Origin: an uncultured Holophagales bacterium
GTDB taxonomy: Bacteria > Acidobacteriota > Thermoanaerobaculia > UBA5066
Reading direction: 5' to 3'
Assembly (NCBI GenBank): GCA_964561935.1
Contig: CAZLQX010000005.1
Coordinates: forward strand, 131,939 to 195,938
Length of the DNA stretch: 64,000 bases
Part shown: positions 7,098 to 33,268 of the stretch, piece by piece
How the letters are laid out: the number at the start of each line of letters is the position of its first letter
Numbering within the stretch: position 1 is the first letter of the stretch
The notes under the pieces: generated by a model
The model's database searches: none
Seen by the model: only the letters and a program-made list of their open reading frames with translations
What the model was told of the DNA's origin: nothing
Translations under genes and position numbers: made by a program

Positions 7098-10000
7098 ATG
7101 AGGAACGACCGTCCGACGTCCGCAGCGGAGAACGCCGCCTCCGGCCTCTCGAAGCGCGCCCTCGCGACGCCCGAGCCGTACGTCCGCCTCTTCTCCAGGC
7201 GCGTCCAGCAGGAGGGGGCCCTCGACCTGACCCAGGGCGACTACAAGAACGCCGACTTCGCGCCGCACCCGGAGGTCGTGAGGGCCGCCCAGCGGATCAC
7301 GCGGAACACCGTCCACAGCTACGGGCCCGCCGTCGGGCGGATGGACGTCCGGGGCGAGGTCGCCGACTTCTTCAACCGCGACGGCCTCCTCGACTACCCC
7401 GCCTCGAACGTCCGCTTCCTCCCCGACGAGGTCCTCTTCACGCCGGGGACCCGCTCGGGCCTCGCGATGGTCCTCGAGGTCCTCGGGGCCGACGGCTCGG
7501 GGGTCGTCGTCCCGCGGCCGAGCTGGGAGTACGACTGGTACGTCGAGCGGGCCGGCAAGAAGCTCGTCGAGCTCCCGACGACGCCCCCCGACTTCCTCCC
7601 CGACCCGAAGGAGCTCGACCGGCTCCTCGCGAAAGGGGGGATCTCCTCCGTCATCCTGAACAACCCGCACAACCCGACCGGGCGGGTCTACCCGAGGGAG
7701 CTCGTCGAGGCGATCGTCCGGGTCGCGGTGAAGCACCGCTGCTACGTCCTCTACGACTCGGTCTACCAGCGGCTCGACTACGTCGGCTGGTTCGTGAACC
7801 CCGCCTTCGCCGACCCCGAGTGGCGCGACCGGGTCGTCTCCCTCTCGGGCCTCTCGAAGATGGACATGTTCGGCGCCTCGACCGGCGCGCGCGCCTGCTG
7901 GATGGTGATCTCCGACCAGATCCGCGCGAACGGCATCCGGGCCCGGGAGATCCTCGCGAACCTCTCCGCGTGGCTCGTCGCCACCCCCTCGACGCTCGCG
8001 CAGGACTGGGCCCTCGCCGCGCTTCAGAGCCCGCTCGCGGCGCTCCGCCGCCCCTCGCCCTACATGCGCGAGCGGCGCGACTACATGGTGAGGGCCGCCG
8101 ACGACCTCGCGCCGCTCGGCGTGACGAGGACCGACTTCGGCGGGACGTTCTACGCCCCGCTCGCCTTCCCCGGCCTCGTCGGCGAGCCGTTCGACCGCCT
8201 GAGGAACGGCGTCCGCGAGAGGGCCGTCGTGACGGACTCCGTCGACGCCTTCGAGCTCCTCCTCTCGGGCGGGGTCGGCGGGATCCCGTTCGTCGCCTTC
8301 GCCGGCTCCGACGCCGCGCGCTACGGCACCTGGCAGCGGCTCTCCTACGGCTCGAAGGACGTCAAAGAGCTGACCGTCTTCATCGACCGCGTGAAGGCGC
8401 GGATCGAGGCGCAGGGGAAGCTCGGGTCGAGCGCCCCGGCCGCACAGGTCGCGGCAACGCCGCTCGCCGCCGTCTGGGAGAGCGTCTGCACGGCCGCGGG
8501 CTACGAGGCGCTCGACGATCTCGACCCGAAGGCGTTCGCGAAGGCCCGGGCGGAGTTCCTGAAGGCGCCGCGCCACGAGGAGCTCCGCCTCACCGGGACG
8601 AAGCACCCCGACTCGACGGCCCACCGCGCCGAGCAGCTCGACCGCGCCCTGAGCGCCGTGCCGGCCGGCGCCGACCGCGCGAGGCTCGCGCTCAAGCACC
8701 TCGAGTGGAACCCGCTCGTCGACGCGCGCCTCGAGTACGAGGAGACGGTCGCCGACCTCCTCGGACCGTGCAGCGAGGTGCTCCTCGACTTCGAGGGGCG
8801 CCAGATCAGCCCCGAGTGGCTCGACCTGCCGGAGAAGGTCGTCCTCGCCCTCCTCCGCCACGGCGTCGTCCCGGGCGAGGACCGCCACCTCCTCTTCCGG
8901 GTCCCGAACCCCTTCATCGAGCAGGACGAGGAGAAGATCGTCCGGATCCTCGCCTCGGTCGCGCGCGCGAACGCCCTCTTCCACCTCGCCTGCGAGAAGG
9001 TCGGGGTGCCGCCGTCGCAGAACGCGCTCCCGGAGCTGACCGTCCCGCAGGTGAACTCGGGCGCCGAGATCGGCGCCGTCGTGAAGATCGGGACGCTCTA
9101 CCGCGCCGCGATCGCCTCCCTCTTCGCCGGCGACGCGCACGGCGACGCCTTCCTCCGGGCGCGCGTCCCCGAGGCGCGCCGCGCGGAGATGATCGCGAAG
9201 CTCGAGCGCGTCCGGCTCGTCCCGCTCTGCGAGAACGTCGGCGCGCTCGCGCGCCTCCCCGAGTTCCTCGAGGCGTTCTACGTCGCCCTCGAGAGGGGCC
9301 GCGGTCTCCCCGACGTCCCGACGGCCGCCGTCTTCCGGACGCGCTTCGACCGCGACGAGGCGATCGTCCGCGTCTTCGTCGCCATGTCCGACACCGCCGA
9401 GCAGAGCGGCAAGGTGGCGACGGACGCCGCCGTCACGCTCGCGCTCGCCGGCCGCGAGGAGGCCGAGGGGCGGCTCGCCGCGCTCGCGGCGAAGGCGGGT
9501 GAGCCGGCGCCGCGCGTCACGTTCCTGATCGGCGCCGGGCGGGCCGGCTTCCGCGGCGGCTTCGACCCCGACCACCCGGGGGTGATCCGGCAGTTCGCGC
9601 GCGCCGACGGCGTCACGATGCAGGGGATCCGCGCCGACGACCCGGCCGCCGCCGAGCGCCTCGCCGCCGCCTTCCGCGCCGCCGTCGCCTCCCCCGCGCC
9701 GTCGCCCGCGATGACCGCGGCCGACCGCGACGCGCTCGGCAAGCTCCTCGAGGCGGGCGTGAAGGCCCACACCGAGACGCTCCTCCGAATCGCGCCGCTC
9801 CTCGCTCCGTTCGGCGGCCTCGTGCCGCAGACGCGCGTGCGGATCCGCGCGACGGGCTCCGTGAACTACGGGCGCTCGATCCCGACCTACCCCGAGGAGT
9901 GGGGCGGCGGGACGACGCTCCCCGACAACCGCGACCTGCGCGACGCCTGGCCCGAGGGGGTCACGCTCCCGCGCGCCATCGTCTACAACCTCGGGTCGAC

Positions 10001-10667: not shown

Positions 10668-10777
10668 GCCGGAGCGGTCCCGTCGGGAGGCCCGTTCCGC
10701 CGCCGCACGGAGGGCGGGCCTCGGCGGCGCGTATCCTCGCGGCTTCGGCGGACGGCCGCGGCCAGGGAGGAGTCGGA

Positions 10778-11875
10778 GTGTCGGAAGAGGTCGGAGGGAT
10801 CCGCGCGAGGCTCGCGGCGCTCCAGGGCCTCGCCCTGCGGCACGAGCGCCTCTTCTGGACGCTCCACAGCGTCTGGGCCCTCGGCTGGGGCGTCGTCTTC
10901 GTCCTCCTCGGGAAAGGCCGACCGGGCCTCCTCCGCTGGGGGCTCGTCTCCGTCGGCGCCGTCTGGCTCACGAGCCTCGCCCTGCCGGCCTTCCTCGCCA
11001 GCTCGCGGATCCCCGCGGCGCGGAAAGGGGCGGCGCGAAGGCTCGTCCTCTGGGGCCAGAAGTGGCTCCTGCAGGGGCTCTCCTTCTTCCTCCTCCCGCT
11101 CTACCACCGGAGCGCGACCTACGCCTCGCCGCAGGCTCTCTTCATGGCGCTCCTCGCCGCGGCCGCCCTCGCGGCGACGGTCGACGTCGTCTACGACGAA
11201 GTCGTGACGAGGAAGCGGCCGCTCCTCGGCCTCTTCCTCTCGTTCGTCGCCTTCGCCACGGCGAACGTCTCGCTCCCGATGGTCTGGCGGGTCGGAGGCC
11301 TCTGGAACCTCTTCGCGAGCGGTCTCCTCGCGACGGCGGTCTTCGTCTCCTTCGTCGCGACCCGCGGGAGCGGCCGCCCGGCGTTCGCCGTCCTCCGGAC
11401 GACGCTCGTCGCCCTCTTCTTCCTCGCGCTCGTCACGCTCGGCCGGCCCGCCGTCCCCCCGGCTCCGCTCCGCCTCGTCTCCGCGCACCTCGGCCTCGCC
11501 CTCGCCCCGAACGGCCTCGACGTCTCCGAACCGCTCTCCGCGCTCCCCCCGACCCGGGCCGTCCGACTCCATGCCGTGGCGGCCGTCCAGGCGCCGGCGG
11601 GCCTTGCCGAGGGGGTCCGTCACGTCTGGTCCGTCGACGGCGACGTCGTCTTCGAGAGCCGCGTCATCGGGATCACGGGCGGGCGCGGGAGGGGCTTCCG
11701 CTCCCGGAGCGCCGTATCGCTCCACGGCCTGGGCGCGGGCCGGCGCGTGAGGCTCGAGGTCGAGACCGCCCGCGGGCAGCTCATCGGACGCGCGGAGCTG
11801 CGTGTGGAGGGCCTGCCTCCCGTGCCGCAGAGCGCCCGCGGATCCGGACGACCGCCCTCAGACCGGCAGCTATGA
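10778..11875 (+). CDS. hypothetical polytopic membrane protein with a soluble C-terminal domain
   Basis: GTG start preceded by GGGAGGAG. The first ~270 aa contain at least 6 hydrophobic helices; the C-terminal ~90 aa are soluble (HVWSVDGDVVFESRVIGITGG...). The upstream part of ORF 9899..11875 is Arg-rich junk. Confidence 0.5.
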   Translation: MSEEVGGIRARLAALQGLALRHERLFWTLHSVWALGWGVVFVLLGKGRPGLLRWGLVSVGAVWLTSLALPAFLASSRIPAARKGAARRLVLWGQKWLLQGLSFFLLPLYHRSATYASPQALFMALLAAAALAATVDVVYDEVVTRKRPLLGLFLSFVAFATANVSLPMVWRVGGLWNLFASGLLATAVFVSFVATRGSGRPAFAVLRTTLVALFFLALVTLGRPAVPPAPLRLVSAHLGLALAPNGLDVSEPLSALPPTRAVRLHAVAAVQAPAGLAEGVRHVWSVDGDVVFESRVIGITGGRGRGFRSRSAVSLHGLGAGRRVRLEVETARGQLIGRAELRVEGLPPVPQSARGSGRPPSDRQL

Positions 11876-11882
11876 TCGGTTC

Positions 11883-12341
11883 ATGGAGCGGACGGTCTGC
11901 CGGGACGTCGTCGTGAACGCCGCGCCGGAGAGGGTCTTCGCGGCCTTCACCGAGGTCCAGGAGGTCCTCGCCTGGCTCGCCGACGCCGCCGTGATCGGCC
12001 GGCGCGTCGGCGGGAACTGGGCCCTCGGCTGGTACGCCGACGAGGAGTCCGACGACGGCTATCACGTCCTCGGGACGTTCGACGTCTACGAGCCGGCGAG
12101 CCGGCTCGTCGTCCGCGACCTCCGATTCTCCACGCCCGAGGGGGACCTCTTCGAGGGGATGAGGCTCTCGGTCGAACTCGCCCCGGAGAACGGCGGGACG
12201 CGCGTCTCGGTCCGCCAGGAGGGGATCGGCGAGGGGGCCTCGTGGGACGGCTACGCCGCCGGCCTCGGGCCGGGCTGGGAGCGCTCCCTCGAGGACCTTC
12301 GCGGCTGGCTCGAGGAGGGCCGCAAGCTCCCGGGACGCTGA
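11883..12341 (+). CDS. SRPBCC-superfamily protein (AHSA1/polyketide-cyclase-like START fold)
   Basis: 152 aa starting MERTVCRDVVVNAAPERVFAAFTEVQEVLAW, the characteristic N-terminal beta-strand/helix of the Aha1/SRPBCC family. Confidence 0.6.
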   Translation: MERTVCRDVVVNAAPERVFAAFTEVQEVLAWLADAAVIGRRVGGNWALGWYADEESDDGYHVLGTFDVYEPASRLVVRDLRFSTPEGDLFEGMRLSVELAPENGGTRVSVRQEGIGEGASWDGYAAGLGPGWERSLEDLRGWLEEGRKLPGR

Positions 12342-12404
12342 CCGCGGCCGGGACATCCCCGTCGAGCTGGTAAGGTGCCGGCATCACGAACCCAGGAGGT
12401 CCCC

Positions 12405-13049
12405 ATGAGAGCTGCTCGTGTCGTCCTCGTCCTCTCGGCGCTCGCCGCCGCCTGCGGACCGCAGGCGAAGAAGCCGGAGGCCCCCGAGCCGCCCGCCTCC
12501 GCGACCACGGTCCGCGAGGAGCCTGGGCCGGCCGAGCGGCCCGAATCCGCCGCCGACCCCTGCGCCGTCCTCCGCGCGCCGATGACCCGCCACGACGCGG
12601 CCGGCTCCCCGCTCGCTTTCTCGTTCGAGATGCCGGAGGGCTTCGTCCCGAAGGACTTCTCGAAAGGGGAGCTCGTGAACGTCGACGTGACCCGCGACCT
12701 CGACGGAGACCGCGCGGACGAGCACGTCCTCCGTCTCGCCTACTCCACGAAGCCCGTGGAGCGCCCGGAGGACCTCGTCGCCGTTTGGCGGAAGCTGCCG
12801 GCGACCGTGAAGGTCCTCGAGAAGAGCGTCGGCGGCCGGACGATGTACGTCCAGCGGACGAAGGTGGGCGAGATGTCGGGCTTCGTCGCGCTCTTTCCGG
12901 CCCCCGGGAGCACGACCGCCGCCTACTCCGTCCTCGGCGGCCTGACGGCCGCGCCGAAGCCTTGCCGCGACGAGGCGGCCGAGGTCCTGGAGCGGATGCT
13001 CCTGAGCTTCGAGCCGAACCCGCGCATCGGTCCGATCCCGAAGGGCTGA
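12405..13049 (+). CDS. hypothetical lipoprotein
   Basis: Signal peptide plus lipobox (MRAARVVLVLSALAAACG). CCAGGAGGT lies 5-6 nt upstream of the ATG. High GC3. Confidence 0.6.
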   Translation: MRAARVVLVLSALAAACGPQAKKPEAPEPPASATTVREEPGPAERPESAADPCAVLRAPMTRHDAAGSPLAFSFEMPEGFVPKDFSKGELVNVDVTRDLDGDRADEHVLRLAYSTKPVERPEDLVAVWRKLPATVKVLEKSVGGRTMYVQRTKVGEMSGFVALFPAPGSTTAAYSVLGGLTAAPKPCRDEAAEVLERMLLSFEPNPRIGPIPKG

Positions 13050-23522: not shown

Positions 23523-24299
23523 ATGGCGACCATCAGCACGCGCAAGTTCATCGCCCTCCGCAAGCTCACCCGCGCCCTCGCCGAGACGCTGCGCGGCGAC
23601 CTGCGCGGGACCCTGATCACCGTCGAGCCGCTGCTCCGGCCGAGGTCGGTCTTCGGCGAGCACGTCCAGGGCCACGGGAAGGACCTCGTCAAGGGCTCCG
23701 ACCGCGCCTTCAAGGACCTCGCCGCCGACTTCGCCGAGGTCGCCGGGAGCAAGCCCTTCCACCTCCCGCGGGAGCTGAAGTCGCCGTTCGAGGTGATGAG
23801 CGCCTCCCTCGAGATGCAGCCCGTCGAGTACTCCTACACGGCGCGCGGCGAGCGGGAAAGCAAGACCGTCAAGATCACGTCGCCCCTGAAGTGGGTCGTG
23901 AACTATCGCGACTACGGCCTCGACGAGCTCAAGCGCCTCCTCGCCGACCGGAACCGGACCGAGGAGCAGCTCCGGCGCTTCGTCCTCCACTTCCTCCTCG
24001 TCGAGCACGTCTTCACCCGGCAGCCTGGCGTCAAGGAGATGCTCGGCTCGCTCCGCTTCCCGGTCGTCGTCGAGCGTCGCCCCGAGTTCGGCTCGCTCCC
24101 GATCACCTGCATCACGACCGCCGTCTCGACCTACCGCCCCGACGACGAGGTCATCATCGAGACGACGGAGATCTCGGGAAGCGAGGAGTTCGAGGAGTTC
24201 GTGAAGGTCTCCGACATCTCCGGCATGAAGGACGCCTTCCGCGACCGGCTCCTCGAGATCGTCCGCGCCCAGGGCCCCGACCTCCTCGACGAGCCGTAG
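23523..24299 (+). CDS. hypothetical protein (258 aa), putative partner of the downstream sheath-like gene
   Basis: A clean ORF, MATISTRKFIALRKLTRALAETLRGDLRGTLITVEPLL..., forms the tail of junk ORF 20562..24299. It is co-directional with the following gene, 82 nt upstream of it. No recognised domain. Confidence 0.55.
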   Translation: MATISTRKFIALRKLTRALAETLRGDLRGTLITVEPLLRPRSVFGEHVQGHGKDLVKGSDRAFKDLAADFAEVAGSKPFHLPRELKSPFEVMSASLEMQPVEYSYTARGERESKTVKITSPLKWVVNYRDYGLDELKRLLADRNRTEEQLRRFVLHFLLVEHVFTRQPGVKEMLGSLRFPVVVERRPEFGSLPITCITTAVSTYRPDDEVIIETTEISGSEEFEEFVKVSDISGMKDAFRDRLLEIVRAQGPDLLDEP

Positions 24300-24380
24300 C
24301 CGCCCCGGAACGCTCCGGCGGCCCGCCCGGCCGCGGCGCCGCCTATACTCGGCCCACCTGTCGTCGAGGAGGTCCCGCCC

Positions 24381-25733
24381 ATGTCGAAGCCGTTCTCCTT
24401 CGGTGCGTTCGACGTCCGTCTCGAGGCCGGAGCCGAGCCCCGCCCCGCCCGCGCGGAGGACGACGCTCCCTTCCGGATCCTCGTCGCCGGGGACTTCTCG
24501 GGCCGGGCGGCTCGCGGACTCCTCGAGACCGGCGCCGCCCTCGGCGAGAGGAAGGCCTTCCGCGTCGACCTCGACTCCCTCGACGCGACGATCGCGCGCC
24601 TCGAGCCCGTCGTCCGCCTCCGCGACGGCGAGGTCCTCCGGTTCCGGGAGCTCGACGACTTCACGCCCGACGCCCTCTTCGCACGCATCCCCCGCTTCGG
24701 CGCCCTGAAGGAGGCGGGCGAGGCGCAGGCACGGCACCGTGCCGCGCGGCGACCCGCGACGGTCGACCTCCTCGACCGGATCCTGGACGGCACGCCGCAG
24801 GAGGAGGCGCCGCTCGACGACGCGGGCCCGGACCGCGTGACGGAGCTGATGCGGGAGATGCTCGGCGCCGCCGCCTTCAAGGCCCTCGAGGCGAGCTGGA
24901 GGGGCGTCGACTTCCTCCTCCGCCGCCTCGACGTCGACGGACCCCTCACTCTCCACCTCGTCGACCTCTCCCCGGAGGAGCTCCGCGCCGACCTCCTCGC
25001 CTCCGAGGAGCTCGGGAAAACGGGTCTTCACCGCCTCCTCGTCGAGAAGACGGTCGGGACACCGGGCGGCCACCCGTGGGCCGCGCTCGTCGTCCTCGGC
25101 TCGTTCGGGCCGGAGCGACGGGAGGCCGAGGCCCTCGGCCGCCTCGCGCGGATCGCCGCGCAGGCGGGGACCGCCGTCCTCGCCGGCGCCGAGCCCGGCA
25201 TCCTCGGCTGCGTCTCGCTCGCCGAGACGCCCGACCCGGACGACTGGACGGCCCCCGAGAGCGAAGGGGCCGAGGCGTGGGCCGCGCTCCGCCGGCTTCC
25301 CGAGGCCCGATTCTGCGGCCTCGCCCTCCCCCGCGTCCTCCTCCGCCTCCCGTACGGGAAGGAGGCGACCGCCGTCGAGGCGTTCGGCTTCGAGGAGCTC
25401 TCGACGCCGCCCTCTCACGAGGAGTACCTCTGGGGATGCCCCGCGCTCGCGACGGCGCTCCTCCTCGGCGAGGCCTTCCTCGAGGACGGCTGGGGCCTCC
25501 GCCCCGGCTCCGCGCAGGAGATCTCCGGCCTGCCGTTCGCCCTCGTCTCCGAGGACGGCGAGAAGCGGGCCGTGCCGTGCGCCGAGACGCTCTTCACCGT
25601 CCGCGCGGCTCAGGCCGTGACGGAGCGCGGGTTGATGCCGCTCCTCACGATGAAGGGGACCGACACCGTCCGCCTCGCGATCTTCCAGTCGATCGCGGAC
25701 CCGCACGGCGACCTCGCCGGCCTCTGGGGCTGA
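24381..25733 (+). CDS. single-chain TssB-TssC-like contractile-sheath paralog (VipA-like N-terminus fused to a C-terminally truncated VipB-like body)
   Basis: The N-terminus (FDVRLEAGAE...PFRILVAGDFSG) parallels the canonical TssB in this window (ITYDVEIGGAIE...LPFVVGVIGDFSG). The central and C-terminal parts align with the canonical TssC here: ALEASWRGVDFLL vs RLEASWRGLHHLV, LPRVLLRLPYG vs MPRTLMRLPYG, and HEEYLWGCPALA vs HDKYLWGNAAYS. The alignment stops about 70 aa before the TssC C-terminus. Confidence 0.6.
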   Translation: MSKPFSFGAFDVRLEAGAEPRPARAEDDAPFRILVAGDFSGRAARGLLETGAALGERKAFRVDLDSLDATIARLEPVVRLRDGEVLRFRELDDFTPDALFARIPRFGALKEAGEAQARHRAARRPATVDLLDRILDGTPQEEAPLDDAGPDRVTELMREMLGAAAFKALEASWRGVDFLLRRLDVDGPLTLHLVDLSPEELRADLLASEELGKTGLHRLLVEKTVGTPGGHPWAALVVLGSFGPERREAEALGRLARIAAQAGTAVLAGAEPGILGCVSLAETPDPDDWTAPESEGAEAWAALRRLPEARFCGLALPRVLLRLPYGKEATAVEAFGFEELSTPPSHEEYLWGCPALATALLLGEAFLEDGWGLRPGSAQEISGLPFALVSEDGEKRAVPCAETLFTVRAAQAVTERGLMPLLTMKGTDTVRLAIFQSIADPHGDLAGLWG

Positions 25734-25741
25734 GACGCCCC

Positions 25742-26311
25742 CTAGAACGCGCTCCAGCGCCCGTCGATCATCCAGGAGACCTTCTGGAGGATCGCGGGCT
25801 GGCGGAGGTCGACCTCGCGCCGCGCGACGGCGTTCCACCTCGGGGTCTCGCCGCGGCAGAGGACGACGTCGCGCATCGTCAGGACGAACCAGACCTGGAC
25901 GAGGAGCTCCTCGGCGCTCTGCAGCAGGTAGCCCTGCCGGATCAGCTCCTCGACGCGGAGGGCGAGGCGGGGCACCGCGCTCACGACGGGGATGTCCGAG
26001 AGCGGGTGCTCGCCGGGGCGCTCGAAGCCGGTCACCTCGCCCGCCTCGGAGAAGCCGCGGACGACCATCGGCTGGTCGAGCCATGGGCCGGGCTCGGCTC
26101 CCTCGGCGACCTCGCGCCGGGCCGTCCGCTCCACGAGGACGCCGCTGAAGGGGCGCCGGAAGAAGCGCATGCAGTTCTCCTTCGCGAGGGCGTCCGCGTC
26201 GTTCCGGCTCTTCGCCCACCACGCCGCGAAGCCCCACTCGTCGAAGAGGCGCATCGACCGGATCGCCGCCGTCGTCTCCTCGACGGCTTCGCGCCCGACG
26301 CGCGACTTCAT
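25742..26311 (-). CDS. hypothetical protein, candidate immunity protein for the upstream toxin. Start uncertain; the ORF extends to 26491.
   Basis: Last gene of the vgrG-PAAR-adaptor-effector string on the minus strand. Trp-rich (FAAWWAKSRNDADA...). The N-terminal 60 codons of the ORF are Gly/Pro/Arg-rich, so I take the internal Met (MKSRVGREA). Confidence 0.4.
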   Translation of the reverse strand: MKSRVGREAVEETTAAIRSMRLFDEWGFAAWWAKSRNDADALAKENCMRFFRRPFSGVLVERTARREVAEGAEPGPWLDQPMVVRGFSEAGEVTGFERPGEHPLSDIPVVSAVPRLALRVEELIRQGYLLQSAEELLVQVWFVLTMRDVVLCRGETPRWNAVARREVDLRQPAILQKVSWMIDGRWSAF

Positions 26312-26743
26312 CCAGCCGTCGAAGAGGGCGATCTCGACGTCCGTGAGGCCCGAGAACGGCGAGGGCGACGTGCCGCTCTCCTCGCGGCCCGCCGGACCGA
26401 CGCCGACGGCGCTCCGCCCGGGCCGTCCCGTCGGCCCCTCGGGCGTCAGGAGGCCGCCGCCCGCGCGGAAGGGGCTCACCCTCGACGGCACCGGCGCGCC
26501 CCTCTCAGCGCCTCGCCGGCCACGGGGGGACCGGCTTCGTCCGGCCCGGCTCGAGGCCGCCGAGGTGCTCGAGGACCTCCCGGTAGCGGGGGTCCGACTT
26601 GGGGTAGACGAGGCGGGCGTCGCCGACGATCCCGCGTCCGTCCGTGGCCCTCAGGTCGAGGACGATCGAGCCCTCCTCGTCGAGGCGCGCGACCCCGATG
26701 CTCGTGCCGCGCGGCGGCGGCGGCTGGCGTTCCCCTCGTTCCG

Positions 26744-27826
26744 TCACCGCGTCCCTCCTCCCCCCGCCCGCCCGAGCGGGTTCGTCCGCCAGTAGTCGTC
26801 GAGCCTTGGCTGCTCCGGGACGACGTCGGGCGGGCAGCCGAAGCGGCGGGCGGCGCTCTCGGCGAAGCTCTCCTCCTCGCCCGCCTGGCCCGACTGGGAC
26901 ATGTAGTCCGAAAGCTCGCCCGGCGCCGCCGCGCGGACGGAGGTGAAGTCCGCGCCCGAGGACGGCTTGCCGCTCTTGTAGTCGAGCCCGTGGTAGGCCT
27001 CGTGGATCGCGAGGTTCGCCGAGCCGTGCCCGTCCCCCGTGTCGGGGACGTGCGCGCCCCGCTCCGTCCCGTGTCCGCGCGTCGCGACGACGACCCGGTT
27101 CGTCGAGTCGTCGTAGCAGCCCGGCACCTTGCTCCAGTCGGTCCCCTCCGGCCAGCCGCGCGGCGGGTCCCCCGCGAGGCCCGGGCGGCAGTCGGTGACG
27201 GAGCCGCGGCAGACGGCGACGCGCGTCCCGTTCGCCTCCATCCGCTCGAGGTCCTCCCGGGGCATCTTCGCGAGCTCCTGCGCGACGAGCTCCGCGTCCG
27301 CCGCGTCCGCGCTCCCCTCGGCGTCGCAGAGGCCCCGCGCGAGCTCGAGCTTCTTCTCGGTCTCCTCGCTCGTCTCCGCCTCGAGCGCCTCGGCGTCCTT
27401 CTCGAGGCACGGCACGCAGGGGTCTTCCGCGTCCGGCGACCCCTTCGGCGCGTCCTGCGAGCCGTACTTCTCCTTCAGCTCTTCCTTCTTCGCGGCGAAG
27501 TCCTTCTTCGCCTTGCCGATCTTCCCCTCCAGCTCGGCCTTCCTCCGCGGGCTCGTCGACGGGTCGCGGGACTCCTCGACGAGGCGCTTCCCCTCCTCGC
27601 CCATCTTCGCGAGGGCGCGCCGGTCCTCGAGCTCGCGCGTCACACGTCCGTGCTGCTCGTCGATCCGGCGGAGGAGGTCGTCGCGCCGCGCGGAGAGCTC
27701 CGGCCCCGCGCCCGCGGCGGGCGTCGACCGGACCCGGTCGCCGAGGTCGCGCAGCTCCCCTTCGCGCCTCGCGAGCTGCGAGATCCGGCTCGGCGGCTTC
27801 GACCCCGGGCGGGCGTCAGCGGCCAC
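26744..27826 (-). CDS. putative T6SS effector with an HExxH zinc-metallopeptidase-like motif
   Basis: 360 aa. The N-terminal charged coiled-coil region is Lys/Glu-rich. The C-terminal region contains ...SANLAIHEAYHGLDY... (HEAYH). It lies directly downstream of PAAR and the DUF4123 adaptor, in effector position. Confidence 0.5.
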   Translation of the reverse strand: MAADARPGSKPPSRISQLARREGELRDLGDRVRSTPAAGAGPELSARRDDLLRRIDEQHGRVTRELEDRRALAKMGEEGKRLVEESRDPSTSPRRKAELEGKIGKAKKDFAAKKEELKEKYGSQDAPKGSPDAEDPCVPCLEKDAEALEAETSEETEKKLELARGLCDAEGSADAADAELVAQELAKMPREDLERMEANGTRVAVCRGSVTDCRPGLAGDPPRGWPEGTDWSKVPGCYDDSTNRVVVATRGHGTERGAHVPDTGDGHGSANLAIHEAYHGLDYKSGKPSSGADFTSVRAAAPGELSDYMSQSGQAGEEESFAESAARRFGCPPDVVPEQPRLDDYWRTNPLGRAGGGGTR

Positions 27827-28196
27827 GCGCGCCCGGGCGGCTTCCCGCCCCGTCCTCCGCGAAGGGGTCCTCGACGTCGCCCCCGAGGTAGGCGTCGCGG
27901 ACGGCGACGATCCGCTCGTGCGGGCCGCGCCGCCGGTCCTCGAGGTGCTCCCGCGCCCACCGTCCCTCCTCGCCCCGCTCGAACCCCTCGCCGAGATCCA
28001 GCGAGAGGTCGTAGTAGATCGTCGCGTCCCGCTCCGAGGTCAGTCCCCACTCCCGGGCCGAGGCCGCGATCCGAAGCGCCTCCGCGCGGAGCTCCGCGTC
28101 GCGGCGCCCCGCGGCCCGCTCCGGGTAGAGACGGGCGCCGCGCGAGGCGAGCCGCTCGGCGAGCGCCTCCCGGCGCTCCGCCCGGAACGCTTCCAT
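27816..28196 (-). CDS. hypothetical protein (126 aa) between the adaptor and the effector
   Basis: Internal Met of ORF 27816..28475 (MEAFRAERREALAERL...). The upstream part of that ORF overlaps the DUF4123 gene in another frame and is rejected. Confidence 0.4.
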   Translation of the reverse strand: MEAFRAERREALAERLASRGARLYPERAAGRRDAELRAEALRIAASAREWGLTSERDATIYYDLSLDLGEGFERGEEGRWAREHLEDRRRGPHERIVAVRDAYLGGDVEDPFAEDGAGSRPGARGR

Positions 28197-28216
28197 CTGC
28201 GCGGGGCGAATCCGGA

Positions 28217-28705
28217 TCACCTCCGCGCCTCCTTCGGGAAGCGCTCGGGAGCGCGCGCGCCCGGCTCTCCGAGGACGCCCCAGAAGGCCTCCACGGGCCC
28301 GAAGAGCTCGGCCCTCTCGGCCGCGGTCGCCGTCCTCAGATACGACCCGAGAACGCGCGGGTCGTAGAAGCGGAAGACCATCCTCCTCCCGGCCGGGTCC
28401 TCGACGACGTGGATCCTCCGGAAGTGGCCCCGGAGGGCGTCGAGCGTCGTCCGCACCTCGACGAAGACGCCCCACGGCTCCTCCCAGAGCGTCTCCCGGA
28501 TCCAGCCGTAGAGGTCGAGGTCGACGTTCGCGAGCCAGGGGGCGACCGCCCAGTTCCTCTCGCGGGCCGTCCCCTTCCAGAGGCAGTCCCCCTTCTCCGG
28601 CCCGCGAAGCTGGACGCGCGCCGGGACGTCGGGCGCGTCGCAGGCGTCGAGGACGGCCCAGAGCGTCCCTTCCGAGGCGAGGAGCCGGAGGCGGGCTTCG
28701 CTCAT
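28217..28705 (-). CDS. DUF4123-like T6SS effector adaptor (Tap/Tec family, short form)
   Basis: Contains the FRFYDPRVL motif that I associate with DUF4123 adaptor proteins. It sits between the PAAR gene and the putative effector. Confidence 0.5.
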   Translation of the reverse strand: MSEARLRLLASEGTLWAVLDACDAPDVPARVQLRGPEKGDCLWKGTARERNWAVAPWLANVDLDLYGWIRETLWEEPWGVFVEVRTTLDALRGHFRRIHVVEDPAGRRMVFRFYDPRVLGSYLRTATAAERAELFGPVEAFWGVLGEPGARAPERFPKEARR

Positions 28706-28709
28706 CCGC

Positions 28710-29156
28710 TCAGTTCTCGATCACCCGCCGGGGCGGCGCGGGCCGAGGCCCGTCGCAGTCCGTCGCCACGAACGGGGCCCCCTCCCGTTTCGCCGCCCGC
28801 ATCGAGGCCCCCGTCGAGCCGCCTGCGCCCGAGGCGCTCTCGCCGACGAGGACGTCGGGGCTCCCCTCGACGAGGAAGCCCATCCCGCCGCAGTGGGCGT
28901 CCTGGTCTCCGAGGCGGTGGGCCTGCAGGTTCTCGATGAGGACGGTCGGGCTCCCCTGCACCGCGACCCAGGTGTTCGGGCCGCAGCAGGCGGCGTGGAT
29001 GCCGGTGTCGCTCACCCGGAGCGCCGGCCGGCCGTTCACGTAGACCGTCGCGGACCCGGTGATCGCCGGGCCGATCGCGGGATGCGGACAGCCGCCGCAG
29101 GCGTGCGCGTCGGCCGGGACCTGCGACTTGTCGCCGAGACGGCCCTGCGCCGGCAT
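28710..29156 (-). CDS. PAAR-domain spike tip protein
   Basis: 148 aa with the PAAR-repeat pattern: CGGCPHPAIGPAITGSATVYVNGRPALRVSD, HAACCGPNTW and HCGGMGFLVEGSPDV. Confidence 0.85.
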   Translation of the reverse strand: MPAQGRLGDKSQVPADAHACGGCPHPAIGPAITGSATVYVNGRPALRVSDTGIHAACCGPNTWVAVQGSPTVLIENLQAHRLGDQDAHCGGMGFLVEGSPDVLVGESASGAGGSTGASMRAAKREGAPFVATDCDGPRPAPPRRVIEN

Positions 29157-29168
29157 CTCCTCACCCCC

Positions 29169-31529
29169 TCAGCACGACTTCTGGCCGGTCTTCGCGTCGT
29201 CGGCCGTGTCGGGGACGGCCGGCTTCGCCTCCTCGGCGTCCTTCGGCGCGTCCGGCGCGTCGGGCGCCTCGGGGCTGGCGCCGCAGCCCTGGTCGGGCGA
29301 GCCGCCGCTGTTGATCTTCACCATCGTGCCGACGATCGTGACTCCCATCGCGTCGACCTTCACGAAGCCCCCGGGCCCCTTCAGCGTGATCGCCGTCCCG
29401 GCCTCGAGGACGAGCTTCGTCCCGGCCTTGAGGTGGATCTCCTGGCCGGCCTCGACGGCGTGGTTCGAGGAGACCTTCGCGAGGGAGGAGTCGCCGACGG
29501 TGAGGCTCACCTTCCCGGCCACCTTCTCCTTGCGCGCCCCCTGAACCTCGACGCTCTCGTCGCCGACGACCTTCTCCTTGCGCGCCCCCTTCACCTCGAC
29601 GCTCTCGTCGCCGTCGACGAGCTCCATCCGGGAGCCCTTCACGTGGCGGTGCTCGTCCTTCTCGAGGAGCGTCTTCACGACGTCCTTCACGACGACGTCG
29701 AGCGTCCCGTCCCCCTCGTCACCGCCGACGAGGAGCTTCGCGTTCCCCCCGACCTGCCGCTCCTCGTGCCGCCGCACCTTCGTGTGGTGGTCGCGGACGA
29801 CGAGCTCCCGGAAGTCGCCCTTCTTCTCCCCGTCCTCCTCGCGCCCGACCGTCAGGTGCCGGTCGTTCAGGACGTTCTCGCGCCGGTCGTTCTTGACCCG
29901 GATGTCGGTGTCCTTCTCGGCGTGGACGAAGATCTGCTGCTTGTCCTTCGTGTCGTCGAACCTCCACTCGTTGAACCCCTGCCCCCCCTTCGTGGTGTTC
30001 GACTTGTAGCCCGAGAGCTTGTTGTCGTTCTTGTGCTTGGGATCGGGGCCCTGCCCGAGGTACGGGGGCATCTGGTCCGCGTTGTAGACGACGCCGACGA
30101 TGATCGGCTGGTCGGGGTCCCCCTCGAGGAAGTCGACGAGGACCTCCTGGCCGATCCGCGGCCAGAACGAGGCCCCCCAGCGCCGCCCCGCGGCGAGCTG
30201 CCCGACGCGGATCCAGCAGGAGCTGTCCTCGTCGTTCTTCCCCTCCCGGTCCCAGTGGAACTGGACCTTCACGCGCCCGTACTTGTCCGTGAAGATCTCC
30301 TCCCCCTTCGGCCCGACGACGACCGCGGACTGGCTCCCCTGGACGACGGGCTTCGCGGTGAGCCGCTTCGGCCGGTACGGGAGCGCCGCCGGGAAGCAGG
30401 TGAAGACGTTCTGGTACGTGAGGAGCGGGTCCTTGCCCGAGCGGTAGTCGGCCCCGAAGCTCGCGCGGTGGGTCACGGCAGCGAGGACCCACGCGCCGTC
30501 GCTCGAGAAATGCCGCTTCAGCTTCAGCTTGTGGCCCGCCACGAAGTGCTTCACGTTGCTCGCGCCGCGGGCCGCGACGGCGAGCGTCGCCTCCTCGTCC
30601 ATCCGGATCTCTACGGTCCGCGTGTTGTCCTGGAAGATCTTCTGGAGCTCCCCCTGCTGCTCTCCGCCGGAGCGGTTGATCCCGTCGAAGCGCTGGGCGT
30701 ACTCGCCCGGCCAGTCGTAGACCTCCCAGCCGTCCGAGCCCTTGACCTTCAGCTTGTGCGTGTCGCGCCCCGCCTGCACCGTGTCGAGGATCGGCGCCTC
30801 CGCCTCGAGGTGCTTGTGCGGGAGCTCGAAGCAGTGGTCCCAGAGGAGCGACTTCGTCGAGCGCGCCTCCTGGTAGCGCTCCCAGCCCCAGATCCGGTTC
30901 TCGTCGCGGGTCCCGCCCGAGAGCTCCTCGTAGGTGATCTCGCTCTCGCCGGGGAGGTCGGGGAATGCGGAAGAGGAGTTCGCGACGACCATCGTGTGCC
31001 GGCCGTCCTCGTGGCGGAAGAAGTAGAAGATCCCCTCCTCCTCCATGAGGCGCGAGGCGAAGTTGAAGTCCGTCTCCCGGTACTGGACGCAGAAGTCGCG
31101 CTTCTCGAACGTCCCCTGGATCTGCCAGTCGACGGTGACCCCCTTCATCACCTCCTTGAGGATGTCGGGGACGTTCATCCGCTGGAAGATCCGGCTCTGG
31201 GCCTTCCGCGCGAGGAGCTGGAACTCGGGGACGAGCTCGGCCCGGTAGAGCGTGAAGTTCTCGTCGCGCCCGGCCTGCGAGAAGCGCGCGCAGACGCCGT
31301 TGAAGTGGTGCTCCGTCGACTCGTCGGGAAGGAGGAGGTGGACCGTGAGCTTCTCCCCGAGGAGCGCGTCGAACGGGACCTTCTGCCGGTTCTCCGCGAT
31401 CATCTCGATCTGGAAGCGGAACGGCCGCGAGATCTCCTCGGTGCCGGTGAAGGCCTTCAGGAGGAGGACGTTCTCCCCCAGCGGCGTCGTGACGCGGACC
31501 TTGCGGTTCTGCTGCAGGTAGGACGTCAC
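29169..31529 (-). CDS. vgrG: VgrG (TssI) spike protein
   Basis: gp27-like N-terminus (SYLQQNRKVRVTTPLGENVLLLKAFTGTEEISRPFRFQIEMIA), gp5-like OB domain, and a C-terminal beta-helix of repeated VxGxxxxxV units. A GTG start is proposed at 31529 with G-rich RBS-like sequence upstream; the ORF's first Met at 31775 would add an Arg/Pro-rich leader. Confidence 0.9.
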   Translation of the reverse strand: MTSYLQQNRKVRVTTPLGENVLLLKAFTGTEEISRPFRFQIEMIAENRQKVPFDALLGEKLTVHLLLPDESTEHHFNGVCARFSQAGRDENFTLYRAELVPEFQLLARKAQSRIFQRMNVPDILKEVMKGVTVDWQIQGTFEKRDFCVQYRETDFNFASRLMEEEGIFYFFRHEDGRHTMVVANSSSAFPDLPGESEITYEELSGGTRDENRIWGWERYQEARSTKSLLWDHCFELPHKHLEAEAPILDTVQAGRDTHKLKVKGSDGWEVYDWPGEYAQRFDGINRSGGEQQGELQKIFQDNTRTVEIRMDEEATLAVAARGASNVKHFVAGHKLKLKRHFSSDGAWVLAAVTHRASFGADYRSGKDPLLTYQNVFTCFPAALPYRPKRLTAKPVVQGSQSAVVVGPKGEEIFTDKYGRVKVQFHWDREGKNDEDSSCWIRVGQLAAGRRWGASFWPRIGQEVLVDFLEGDPDQPIIVGVVYNADQMPPYLGQGPDPKHKNDNKLSGYKSNTTKGGQGFNEWRFDDTKDKQQIFVHAEKDTDIRVKNDRRENVLNDRHLTVGREEDGEKKGDFRELVVRDHHTKVRRHEERQVGGNAKLLVGGDEGDGTLDVVVKDVVKTLLEKDEHRHVKGSRMELVDGDESVEVKGARKEKVVGDESVEVQGARKEKVAGKVSLTVGDSSLAKVSSNHAVEAGQEIHLKAGTKLVLEAGTAITLKGPGGFVKVDAMGVTIVGTMVKINSGGSPDQGCGASPEAPDAPDAPKDAEEAKPAVPDTADDAKTGQKSC

Positions 31530-31741: not shown

Positions 31742-33268
31742 ATGCACGCTCGCCGGCTCCGGGCCCTCGCCGCACTCTGCGGCCTTTGCGCGTATGGCTG
31801 CCGCGGCTCGGGCCGCGGCCCCGGGGAGACGCTCACCGTCTCGGTCCCGTACGACGTCGACTCGCTCGAGCCGGGGCGGCGCGACCGCCTGAGCGACTTC
31901 GCCGTCCTCTCGAACGCCTACGAGCCTCTCGTGACGACCGACGCCCGGCTCGCCCTCGCGCCCGCCCTCGCGCGCCGATGGGAGAACCCCGACGAGAGGA
32001 GCTGGGTCTTCCACCTCCGCCGCGACGTCCGCTTCCACGACGGGAAGCCGATGACGGCGGACGACGTCGTCTTCACGTTCCGCCGGCTCCTCGACGACCC
32101 GTCCCTCGAAGCCCGGCGGCACATCCTCGCGGTCGAGGACGTCCGGAGGATCACCGATTCGATCGTCGTCGTCAGGACGCGGGCGCCCCTCGCCGACTTC
32201 CTGAACCGGGTCCGCTTCCTCCATGTCGTGCGCCGGGGGTCGACGAACGAGGAGCTGCGGACACGGCCGAACGGGACGGGACCGTTCCGCACCGCCGCCT
32301 ACCGGGCCGGGAAGGAGGTCGTCTTCGAGCGGAACGACGCCTACTGGGGCCCGCGGCCTTCCTTCGAGAGGGCGGTCCTCCGCCTGAACCGCTCGGCCCC
32401 GAAGGCCCTTGCCGAGCTCGAGGAGGGGACGAGCGACCTCGTCCAGGCCGGCTCGCGGGACGCGCTCGCGAGGGCGGGCCCCGGGGTCCGTGTCCGACGG
32501 GTCCCGAGCATCACCGTGAAGCTCCTCCTCTTCGACGTGGAGCGGGAGGGGACGCCGCACGTCGAAGGGGGGCGGAACCCGTTCCGCGACCGGAGGGTGC
32601 GGGAGGCAGTCCACCTCGCGCTCGACCGGTCCCGTTTTGCCCGGCTCCTCCGCGCGCCCGCCGTCCCGGCGGTCCAGCTCGTCCCCCCGTTCATCTTCGG
32701 CTTCGACCCCGACCTCCCCGCGCCCGTCCACGACCTCGCTCGGGCGAAGGCCCTCCTCTCGGAGGCGGGCTGGCCCTCCGGGTTCCGCGTGACGCTCCAT
32801 GCCCGCGAGCTCCTCGCGGACGGGGCCGAGGCCGTCCGGACCCTCCTCGCCCCGGCGGGGATCCGGGTCGACGTGCGGCTCCTCTCGGAGAAGGAGTTCT
32901 TCGGCGCGACGAGCGTCGCCCGGCGGGACTTCGCGATGGCCCTCACGCGGTTCGGCTGCCCGACGGGCGACGCCGCGAACTTCCTCGACGCCGCCCTCCA
33001 CACGCGGGAGACGGGGACCGGGCTCGGCCGGGCGAACACCGGCGGCTACTCGAGCCCCGAGGCGGACCGCCTCGTCGACGAGGCGGCCCGCACGCTCGAC
33101 CCGCCCCGACGCAAAGCCGTGCTGCAGCAGCTCATGCGCCTCGCGATGCACGACCTCCCGTGGGTCCCGCTCTACCTCGAGGAGGAGGTCTACCTCTCGC
33201 GCGAGGGGATCGACTGGGAGCCCCGCCTCGACAACTACGTCCTCCTCTCGGAGGTCCGGCTCCGCTGA
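31742..33268 (+). CDS. ABC transporter substrate-binding protein, family 5 (peptide/nickel/opine type), lipoprotein
   Basis: Lipobox MHARRLRALAALCGLCAYGC, then typical cluster-C SBP blocks: VSVPYDVDSLEP, VFHLRRDVRFHDGKPMTADDVVFTF and RNDAYWG. No permease or ATPase genes nearby. Confidence 0.8.
   Translation: MHARRLRALAALCGLCAYGCRGSGRGPGETLTVSVPYDVDSLEPGRRDRLSDFAVLSNAYEPLVTTDARLALAPALARRWENPDERSWVFHLRRDVRFHDGKPMTADDVVFTFRRLLDDPSLEARRHILAVEDVRRITDSIVVVRTRAPLADFLNRVRFLHVVRRGSTNEELRTRPNGTGPFRTAAYRAGKEVVFERNDAYWGPRPSFERAVLRLNRSAPKALAELEEGTSDLVQAGSRDALARAGPGVRVRRVPSITVKLLLFDVEREGTPHVEGGRNPFRDRRVREAVHLALDRSRFARLLRAPAVPAVQLVPPFIFGFDPDLPAPVHDLARAKALLSEAGWPSGFRVTLHARELLADGAEAVRTLLAPAGIRVDVRLLSEKEFFGATSVARRDFAMALTRFGCPTGDAANFLDAALHTRETGTGLGRANTGGYSSPEADRLVDEAARTLDPPRRKAVLQQLMRLAMHDLPWVPLYLEEEVYLSREGIDWEPRLDNYVLLSEVRLR

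Follow-up and report, generated by a model that had tools for sequence, protein, structure and literature searches.

The Pro-Pro endopeptidases (PPEPs; MEROPS M34, EC 3.4.24.89), namely PPEP-1 (Zmp1) of C. difficile, PPEP-2 and PPEP-3, have been described only as Sec-secreted enzymes of Firmicutes which release the cell's own surface adhesins and are often encoded beside the adhesin substrate (PMC8610288, PMC12828418). A metallopeptidase resembling anthrax lethal factor (Tox-ALF-MPTase) has also been recognised as a polymorphic toxin domain, with delivery by Photorhabdus virulence cassettes (PVC) or the type II secretion system (T2SS) and with Imm-SuFu immunity (Zhang et al. 2012, PMC3482391). 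The present work concerns an operon on the minus strand (31529 to 25742) of a 64,000-nucleotide stretch of DNA, referred to below as the window, from an uncultured Holophagales bacterium (assembly GCA_964561935.1, contig CAZLQX010000005.1, positions 131,939 to 195,938). It is read here as an adaptor-dependent cargo operon of a type VI secretion system (T6SS) that encodes an ATLF/PPEP-like protease toxin, an 80-residue immunity protein and a split DUF4123 adaptor, and to this reading we assign a probability of about 70 %.

An antibacterial T6SS toxin of the zinc-metallopeptidase type is already known from P. aeruginosa, where the C-terminal metallopeptidase of VgrG2b is neutralised by an immunity protein. 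That domain belongs to another metallopeptidase family than the effector described here; it forms part of the VgrG chain instead of travelling as cargo, and its site of action is the periplasm. In DUF4123 adaptors the part that attaches to VgrG (or PAAR) is a conserved N-lobe, and the effector is bound by a variable alpha-helical C-lobe (PMC11582642). TecT and co-TecT are two such lobes, each with its own open reading frame (ORF), and TecT docks on the C-terminal extension of a PAAR protein (PMC11582642). The vgrG-PAAR-adaptor-effector-immunity type of system, the split adaptor and the toxin family are all known. The use of the ATLF/PPEP-like family by a T6SS, together with the small partner family of the toxin, appears to be new; in the open-access literature no paper linking ATLF, PF07737, PPEP or lethal factor to T6SS was found, an absence which is not proof.

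The predicted protease effector and its small partner

The effector gene (26744-27826, minus strand) encodes a protein of 360 residues without a signal peptide, consisting of a long-helix or coiled-coil N-terminus (residues ~1-160) and an ATLF/M34 domain (residues ~160-350). Residues 171-297 match the Pfam ATLF profile (PF07737, MEROPS M34) with a score of 29.9 bits at a gathering cut-off of 27.4, and relatives of the effector score up to 55.7 bits. A phmmer search against PDB sequences retrieved PPEP-2 (6fpc) with E = 1.1e-8 and PPEP-1/Zmp1 with E = 2e-6, the HExxH and EE..AES regions being aligned. The fold was tested on a natural homologue of 570 residues with 40 % identity (P0013) and not on the window protein. 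In the AlphaFold 2 (AF2) model of this homologue the toxin domain was predicted with a local confidence score (pLDDT) above 90, and the part corresponding to the N-terminal ~160 residues of the effector formed long helices. The top 42 PDB matches of the model in Foldseek were all PPEP-1, PPEP-2 or PPEP-3, with target-normalised template modelling (TM) scores of 0.76-0.80 for the PPEP matches, and anthrax lethal factor (LF) followed.

Conservation of single residues was in agreement with these matches. H275, H279, E319, E323, Y308, Q311, P222, W225 and W231 are invariant in all 44 toxin domains, of which 43 have R223 and 42 have E276; the HEAYH sequence at residues 275-279 is thus an HExxH motif whose His residues are never replaced and whose Glu is missing only twice. 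In PPEP-1 two of the zinc ligands and the catalytic base come from the HExxH motif, with Glu185 as the third ligand of the metal; on the S-loop, Lys101 (Arg in PPEP-3) and Trp103 close over the substrate and touch its prolines, and an additional Trp lines the S1 pocket (PMC12828418). In the HMMER alignment E318-E319 of the effector stand opposite E184-E185 of PPEP-1, E185 being the third ligand, and the S-loop P222-R223-G224-W225 with W231 aligns to P-K101-G-W103 and the next Trp. The Pfam, PDB and fold matches, taken with the invariant catalytic and S-loop residues, place the effector by its sequence in the ATLF/M34 family and make it very probable that it is an active zinc endopeptidase which recognises proline in the manner of PPEPs.

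The original prediction had placed a zinc-metallopeptidase-type toxin candidate with a C-terminal HEAYH motif at exactly these coordinates, and both the coordinates and the motif hold. The candidate is supported by the Pfam ATLF, PDB and homologue-model matches, and the HExxH segment lies in a metalloprotease fold of the PPEP/lethal-factor type, as judged from the homologue model. The protein cannot be called unclassified, since it passes the ATLF threshold and matches PPEPs in the PDB.

Conserved cysteine-containing motifs were also noticed in the effector. The motif D-P-C-[VA]-x-C (DPCVPC in the window, 27405-27422, effector residues 136-139) is situated in the linker that joins the coiled coil to the toxin domain and is conserved in the homologous loci L001, L005, L008, L012 and L013. 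C206, present in 43 of the 44 toxin domains, belongs to the motif V-C-R-G.

The next gene in the operon (26505-26747, minus strand) encodes a protein of 80 residues. Its start overlaps the effector stop codon in the sequence GTGA and is preceded by a GGAGG ribosome-binding site (RBS), so that the gene is translationally coupled to the effector gene. The protein shares 71-76 % identity with its orthologues, the ratio of non-synonymous to synonymous substitution rates (dN/dS) being 0.26-0.39, and it has the conserved core SIGxAxLDxxGxIVLDLRA...GDAR..Y....P.Y...L.HLGGL.PGE.KPVPPWP. Homologues with 56-70 % identity are encoded directly 3' of distant ATLF proteins, among them the PAAR-ATLF fusions of L006 and L007 and the effector of L008. 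Searches of Pfam, NCBIfam, PADLOC and PDB sequences with single sequences and with profiles gave no match for the family.

A pattern scan of 185,579 species genomes yielded 42 loci with the toxin domain, and in 39 of the 42 genomes a local hidden Markov model (HMM) found the partner domain of ~65 residues immediately after the toxin, across phyla and delivery modules. The toxin domain is spread over many phyla (Acidobacteriota, Myxococcota, Alphaproteobacteria, Planctomycetota and others), and its N-terminal module may be PAAR, a coiled coil (with DUF4123), eCIS_core, PG_binding_1, DUF1353 or none. Because the toxin swaps its delivery modules and the 80-residue module stays attached to it, the pair behaves as a polymorphic toxin/immunity cassette.

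Two copies of the 80-residue family are present in four loci: L024, L025 and L048 have them in tandem 3' of the toxin, and L018 has one on either side of it. Lipoprotein signal peptides are carried by three members (L025 ~1350-1753, L042 685-1029 and L051 956-1351), with the lipoboxes LSGC, CAGC and LNGC, and in L025 a cytoplasmic-type and a lipoprotein-type copy stand in tandem. The versions with a lipobox are incompatible with the role of a cytoplasmic loading chaperone and hint at a possible periplasmic site of action of the toxin in some lineages. The 80-residue protein of the window has no signal peptide, and the target compartment is therefore probably the cytoplasm. Among the genes of the operon this one is most likely the immunity gene, judging by its coupling to the effector and its co-inheritance with the toxin domain, and the ORF 26505-27410, of which it forms the 3' 243 nt, had been wrongly dismissed as an artefact of high GC content.

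The C-terminal tail of the partner, V-x-P-[W/F], is conserved. In the window it reads KPVPPWP, which fits the PPEP substrate pattern P-P-x-P and suggests a pseudo-substrate mechanism.

Several loci with other arrangements of the two domains deserve mention. In a metagenome-assembled genome (MAG) of Kofleriaceae (L028) two eCIS_core (PF13699) domains and the toxin domain form one protein of 689 residues, which is followed by a gene similar to the 80-residue one. On this basis extracellular contractile injection systems (eCIS) seem to employ the cassette as well, in line with the PVC association reported by Zhang et al. 2012 (PMC3482391). In L031-L047, from Polymorphobacter, Sphingomonas, Brevundimonas and other Alphaproteobacteria, an ATLF domain with an intact HExxH motif is fused to a diverged C-terminal domain of the 80-residue type. 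The N-terminal module of these proteins is absent (~287 residues in total) or is a DUF1353 domain, and no PAAR, VgrG or DUF4123 was detected within 6 kb with narrow HMMs. They may be autoinhibited proteases related to the ancestor of the toxin/immunity pair. In L011 an intact toxin seems to continue into a strongly matching 80-residue domain, but this fusion is discounted, a 1-nt indel of the long-read assembly being its probable cause: one base more than in L008, L012 and L013 joins the two frames at ~7180-7235, and the AGGAGG-ATGA junction is kept. The 134-residue gene described below is split across two frames on the same contig, probably by an assembly indel too.

Gene content, proposed split adaptor and spike

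The GC content across the window is ~74 %, so that long ORFs arise in all six frames. The genes were judged by the GC content of third codon positions (GC3) in each phase, an independent GC3-based gene call, start/stop overlaps with an RBS, and dN/dS of orthologues. Both the GC3 phase and the independent call picked out the minus-strand gene set between 31529 and 25742. The same seven genes are found in the orthologous loci L001 and L005 with 61-87 % protein identity to the window, each of them with dN/dS below 1, and the products of 134, 360, 80 and 249 residues also appear in public gene calls for the identical sequence. All seven genes are co-oriented and tightly packed, with junctions between the extremes of an 11-nt overlap and a 13-nt gap; two of these are the GTGA overlaps preceded by GGAGG, between the DUF4123 and 134-residue genes and between the effector and 80-residue genes. 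A cargo island in the order spike, adaptor, effector and immunity, as originally predicted, is supported by these data, and the tight packing on one strand was described correctly, the number of genes being seven and not six. Two overlapping Arg-rich ORFs had been taken for GC artefacts. This is correct for the plus-strand ORF 23891-28939, because its GC3 phase is wrong, and incorrect for 26505-27410, whose 3' end is the genuine 80-residue gene. For annotation the lesson is that at ~74 % GC a short genuine gene can sit at the end of a long spurious ORF.

The window contains T6SS genes for FHA, TssK, TssL, TssM, TagF, Hcp, TssA, TssB, TssC, TssE, TssF, TssG and ClpV. The core genes lie upstream of the island on the same strand, and with this complete set in front of it the island is a 3' extension of the T6SS cluster. 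The effector is thus encoded 3' of vgrG, PAAR and DUF4123 genes in a genome which bears a T6SS. The synteny of vgrG, PAAR, DUF4123 and effector genes is kept in L001, L005 and L010-L013, and the closest genomes are MAGs of Holophagales and Thermoanaerobaculia.

The spike is formed by the products of the first two genes. The vgrG gene (29169-31529, 786 residues) matches TIGR03361 with 522 bits and encodes Phage_GPD, Phage_base_V and Gp5_trimer_C domains; the protein is 78-87 % identical to its orthologues (dN/dS 0.20-0.36) and ends in a conserved, acidic and Pro-rich tail. In the PAAR protein (28710-29156, 148 residues; PF05488, 53.7 bits) the domain ends at ~residue 105, and the C-terminal extension beyond it is partly conserved in orthologues. 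The alignment of the PAAR protein with L001/L005 contains the conserved stretch SASGAGGSTGASMRAAKREGAPFVATDCDG.

The DUF4123 gene (28217-28705) encodes 162 residues and matches PF13503 with 87.5 bits. The match covers positions 1-118 of the 119 positions of PF13503, in contrast to only positions 42-151 of 245 in the NCBIfam Tla1 profile, from which we infer that the protein comprises the spike-binding N-lobe only. Its size and its FRFYDPRVL motif had been noted before and are confirmed; the shortness that had been thought unusual would be explained by a split adaptor, an arrangement already in the literature. The protein would be short because the adaptor is divided between two ORFs.

The second of these ORFs (27816-28220) starts in a GTGA overlap with the DUF4123 stop codon, with GGAGG upstream, and shows dN/dS of 0.29-0.59. 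Its product has 134 residues and not 126 (27816-28196) as first proposed, the eight added N-terminal residues being conserved in orthologues. The gene is present only in loci whose effector has the coiled-coil N-terminus and is absent from the PAAR-toxin fusions. It adjoins the DUF4123 gene wherever the upstream flank is present (L008 begins at the 134-residue gene itself). In a family of ~570 residues the corresponding domain is fused to the effector N-terminus, and in the AF2 model of this fusion it consists of six helices and nothing else. Since the gene tracks the coiled-coil N-terminus of the effector and not the toxin, its product is best read, by analogy with co-TecT, as the effector-binding lobe, detached from the rest, of a split DUF4123 adaptor. 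This co-occurrence with the DUF4123-dependent N-terminus also speaks against the immunity or co-effector function that had been suggested for it.

The last gene of the operon (25742-26491) encodes a Trp-rich protein of 249 residues. It had been annotated as a shorter ORF (25742-26311, 190 residues), and the N-terminal ~35 residues regained with the earlier start contain the most conserved stretch of the family, SPFRxGGGLLTPxGxTGRPGxxxVGxGP (26380-26491, residues 1-37). This motif is predicted to be disordered (pLDDT below 40), precedes an alpha/beta core and, as far as the window and the 53 fetched loci are concerned, is confined to this family. Searches of Pfam, NCBIfam, PADLOC, PDB sequences and folds yielded no match for the protein; a spike accessory of the Tvp type (DUF2169, DUF6484, DUF3540) was considered and rejected for lack of a domain match. 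Homologue searches of large databases with the 134- and 249-residue proteins returned close relatives only (62-100 % identity), without names or Pfam domains, and an exhaustive HMMER search of 1.84 billion representatives resolved the 249-residue family into 4 clusters with no fusions. The gene is conserved in the closest lineages, yet two islands with an intact toxin, that of L008 and the first copy in L011, lack it. By this distribution it is a lineage-specific accessory, dispensable for the toxin/immunity pair, and an immunity or co-effector role as originally proposed is not supported.

The family of ~570 residues mentioned above (L009 577-2289, L011 ~10760-12469 and P0010-P0019) joins a 134-residue-like domain, the coiled coil, ATLF and an 80-residue-like domain in one chain. 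In all seven of the seven members the HExxH motif reads H-V-x-x-H, so that the catalytic Glu is lost and the zinc ligands are kept. The gene still follows vgrG, PAAR and DUF4123 genes and precedes a homologue of the 249-residue gene. Its product may be a catalytically dead carrier or scaffold. As a fusion of a co-adaptor lobe, a dead protease and an inhibitor domain it offers natural evidence that the three modules work together.

Proposed mechanism and competing explanations

On a spike composed of VgrG and PAAR, the DUF4123 N-lobe would dock to either of the two proteins and the 134-residue protein would supply the effector-binding lobe, in the manner of TecT and co-TecT. The coiled-coil N-terminus would then be the part by which the two lobes hold the effector to the C-terminal extension of PAAR or to the VgrG tail. 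The delivered protease would cleave X-Pro bonds, probably Pro-Pro, in proteins of the target cell, probably in its cytoplasm. In the producer and its siblings the 80-residue protein would bind and block the protease and so act as the immunity protein; more speculatively, its V-x-P-[W/F] tail may occupy the substrate cleft.

A number of observations weigh against this interpretation. The ATLF score of the effector exceeds the cut-off by just 2.5 bits. For the 134-residue protein no sequence similarity to known adaptor lobes could be detected, nor any other match in Pfam, NCBIfam, PADLOC or the PDB. The oxyanion-hole Tyr of the family (Tyr178 in PPEP-1, Tyr728 in LF) stands 7 residues before the Glu ligand. 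The candidate for this role in the effector is the invariant Y308, which lies 11 residues before E319, and HMMER puts Q311 and not Y308 opposite Tyr178. As to the inhibitor, the Pro-Pro pair of its tail is common and not invariant, the first Pro being variable, and no covariation was found between the tail and residues of the toxin pocket, so that the pseudo-substrate mechanism stays a hypothesis. In ~16 genomes, mostly alphaproteobacterial, an intact HExxH domain continues in frame into a diverged 80-residue-like domain, and such a product looks more like a protein with an autoinhibitory or structural C-terminal domain than like a toxin with a classical immunity protein. Finally, the strong conservation of the 80-residue-like domain in the 570-residue fusions, from which the catalytic Glu has been lost, suggests a role beyond the neutralisation of catalysis.

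A more far-reaching version of the proposal would see here the first proline-specific PPEP-like toxin delivered by a T6SS and a new family of pseudo-substrate inhibitors, linked by descent, in one direction or the other, to a C-terminal autoinhibitory domain which alphaproteobacterial homologues of the protease still have in fused form, and in the 249-residue ORFan a new T6SS component, for example a second cargo. In this complete form it is doubtful, and we put it forward tentatively.

The in-frame fusions speak for the possibility that the 80-residue protein is a detached autoinhibitory, pro-domain-like or structural subunit of the protease, in which case protection of siblings, if needed, would come from the 249-residue gene or from elsewhere. 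Several of the ~16 genomes contain no secretion module at all, the domain persists next to dead active sites, and the 249-residue gene takes the last position in the operon, which is a usual one for an immunity gene. The distribution of the two genes nevertheless makes this explanation unlikely: PAAR-toxin fusions and L008 keep only the 80-residue gene as a conserved neighbour and have no 249-residue homologue, and the 249-residue family amounts to 4 clusters worldwide as against a toxin found in many phyla. Paired copies and lipoprotein versions of the partner fit immunity as well. Moreover, an autoinhibitory origin and a present role in immunity are not mutually exclusive.

The protease might also be no antibacterial toxin, its targets being eukaryotic cells or else proteins outside the cell or on its surface; it would then require no immunity, with the 80-residue protein serving as a stabilising partner or chaperone. 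All characterised members of the family have either host proteins (lethal factor) or surface adhesins (PPEPs) as their targets, one of the homologues found here has eCIS_core domains, and Zhang et al. (PMC3482391) tied the domain mainly to delivery of the PVC/eCIS type, often directed at eukaryotes. We consider such a target improbable for the window operon, given that a small partner co-inherited in 39 of 42 genomes, present in paired copies and in periplasmic lipoprotein forms, is the signature of an antibacterial effector and its immunity protein, and that the context is a canonical vgrG-PAAR-adaptor island of the antibacterial type.

A function of the protease in maturation of other cargo was considered as well, for instance by cutting the N-terminal motif of the 249-residue protein, which would then be the true effector. 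This motif is strongly conserved, Pro/Gly-rich and predicted to be disordered, and a homologue of the gene also stands 3' of the catalytically dead 570-residue fusions, where another payload would be needed. We rate this explanation as very improbable: the motif contains no Pro-Pro pair, the protein matches no fold or family, no immunity gene lies downstream of its gene, and the toxin/80-residue pair is widespread without any 249-residue homologue. Lastly, the view that the 126/134-residue ORF, the Trp-rich terminal ORF or both provide immunity or a co-effector, and that 26505-27410 is wholly a GC artefact, is very improbable too. Both ORFs are genuine, conserved and co-transcribed with the effector gene, but comparative genomics already contradicts this view: the first ORF is upstream of the effector gene, does not occur in PAAR-toxin loci and in one family forms a fusion with the effector N-terminus, the second is lacking beside the intact toxins of L008 and of the first copy in L011, and the 3' 243 nt of the supposed artefact are a conserved, translationally coupled gene.

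If the reading as a protease toxin loaded by a split adaptor and neutralised by the 80-residue protein is true, the M34/Pro-Pro-endopeptidase-like class joins the repertoire of T6SS effectors, and enzymes of the PPEP type extend from secreted Firmicute proteins to interbacterial warfare across several phyla. The immunity/inhibitor domain of ~65 residues would provide a genomic marker for the toxin and a natural inhibitor scaffold for M34 proteases. The operon would furthermore represent a second, phylogenetically distant case of a split two-lobe DUF4123 adaptor.

Neighbouring genes and comparison with known systems

On the 5' side of the island the cluster is interrupted between clpV and vgrG by an SBP_bac_5 solute-binding gene on the opposite strand (31742-33268, plus). 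In L001 and L005 vgrG comes directly after clpV, and an SBP_bac_5 gene also adjoins the island of L009. On the other side a gene for a 450-residue protein (24381-25733, plus) converges on the island, with 8 bp between the stop codons. This protein combines weak matches to VipA (TssB) and to the N-terminal part of VipB (TssC) in one chain and is devoid of the VipB_2 C-terminal domain; canonical TssB and TssC are encoded elsewhere in the window. The fused and truncated sheath-like paralogue adjoins the island in L001, L005, L008 and L052 too. It is usually accompanied by a protein of 258 residues, which in the window is encoded upstream of it (23523-24299, plus) and has no Pfam match. In the closest complete relative (L001/L002, 300-4076) a second and different spike island lies directly upstream, with a vgrG gene (745 residues), a PAAR gene (215 residues) and a 280-residue gene on the opposite strand; it is not found in the window.

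The best matches of the effector, in sequence and in the structure of the homologue model, are PPEP-1, PPEP-2 and PPEP-3. It has in common with them the HExxH helix, a Glu ligand that lies downstream as part of an EE tandem, and, for the proline-binding S1/S1' region, a P-[K/R]-G-W S-loop together with a second Trp. It differs in the longer Tyr-to-Glu spacing (11 residues against 7), in the ~160-residue coiled-coil loading region and in the 80-residue partner. Since it has no signal peptide, belongs to an Acidobacteriota-like genome and is encoded as T6SS cargo, it is not a canonical PPEP, although it probably works like one.

With the Tox-ALF metallopeptidases of Zhang et al. 2012 the effector shares the Pfam ATLF domain, and the homologue with eCIS_core domains is a further link between them. 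Delivery is different here, as it would proceed through the T6SS by PAAR fusion or by a DUF4123 adaptor. The partner domain of ~65 residues is unrelated to the immunity proteins described for that toxin, and Imm-SuFu was not recognised among the neighbouring proteins, which gave no Pfam match at E < 0.1.

The arrangement as a whole resembles most closely the PAAR4-TecT-co-TecT-TseT-TsiT system of P. aeruginosa (Burkinshaw 2018, via PMC11582642), in which likewise an extended PAAR protein and a DUF4123 protein limited to the N-lobe are combined with a small protein from its own gene, an effector carried as cargo and an immunity gene. In the window the DUF4123 protein lacks the second lobe, PAAR extends past ~residue 105, and the 134-residue gene, by its position between adaptor and effector genes, its predicted helices, its co-occurrence with the coiled coil and its fusion to the effector N-terminus, would fit the split-adaptor type. 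The P. aeruginosa genes are presumably in the same order as the components of the window. The differences are that TseT is a DNase and the toxin of the window a metallopeptidase, and that in the window vgrG directly precedes the PAAR gene.

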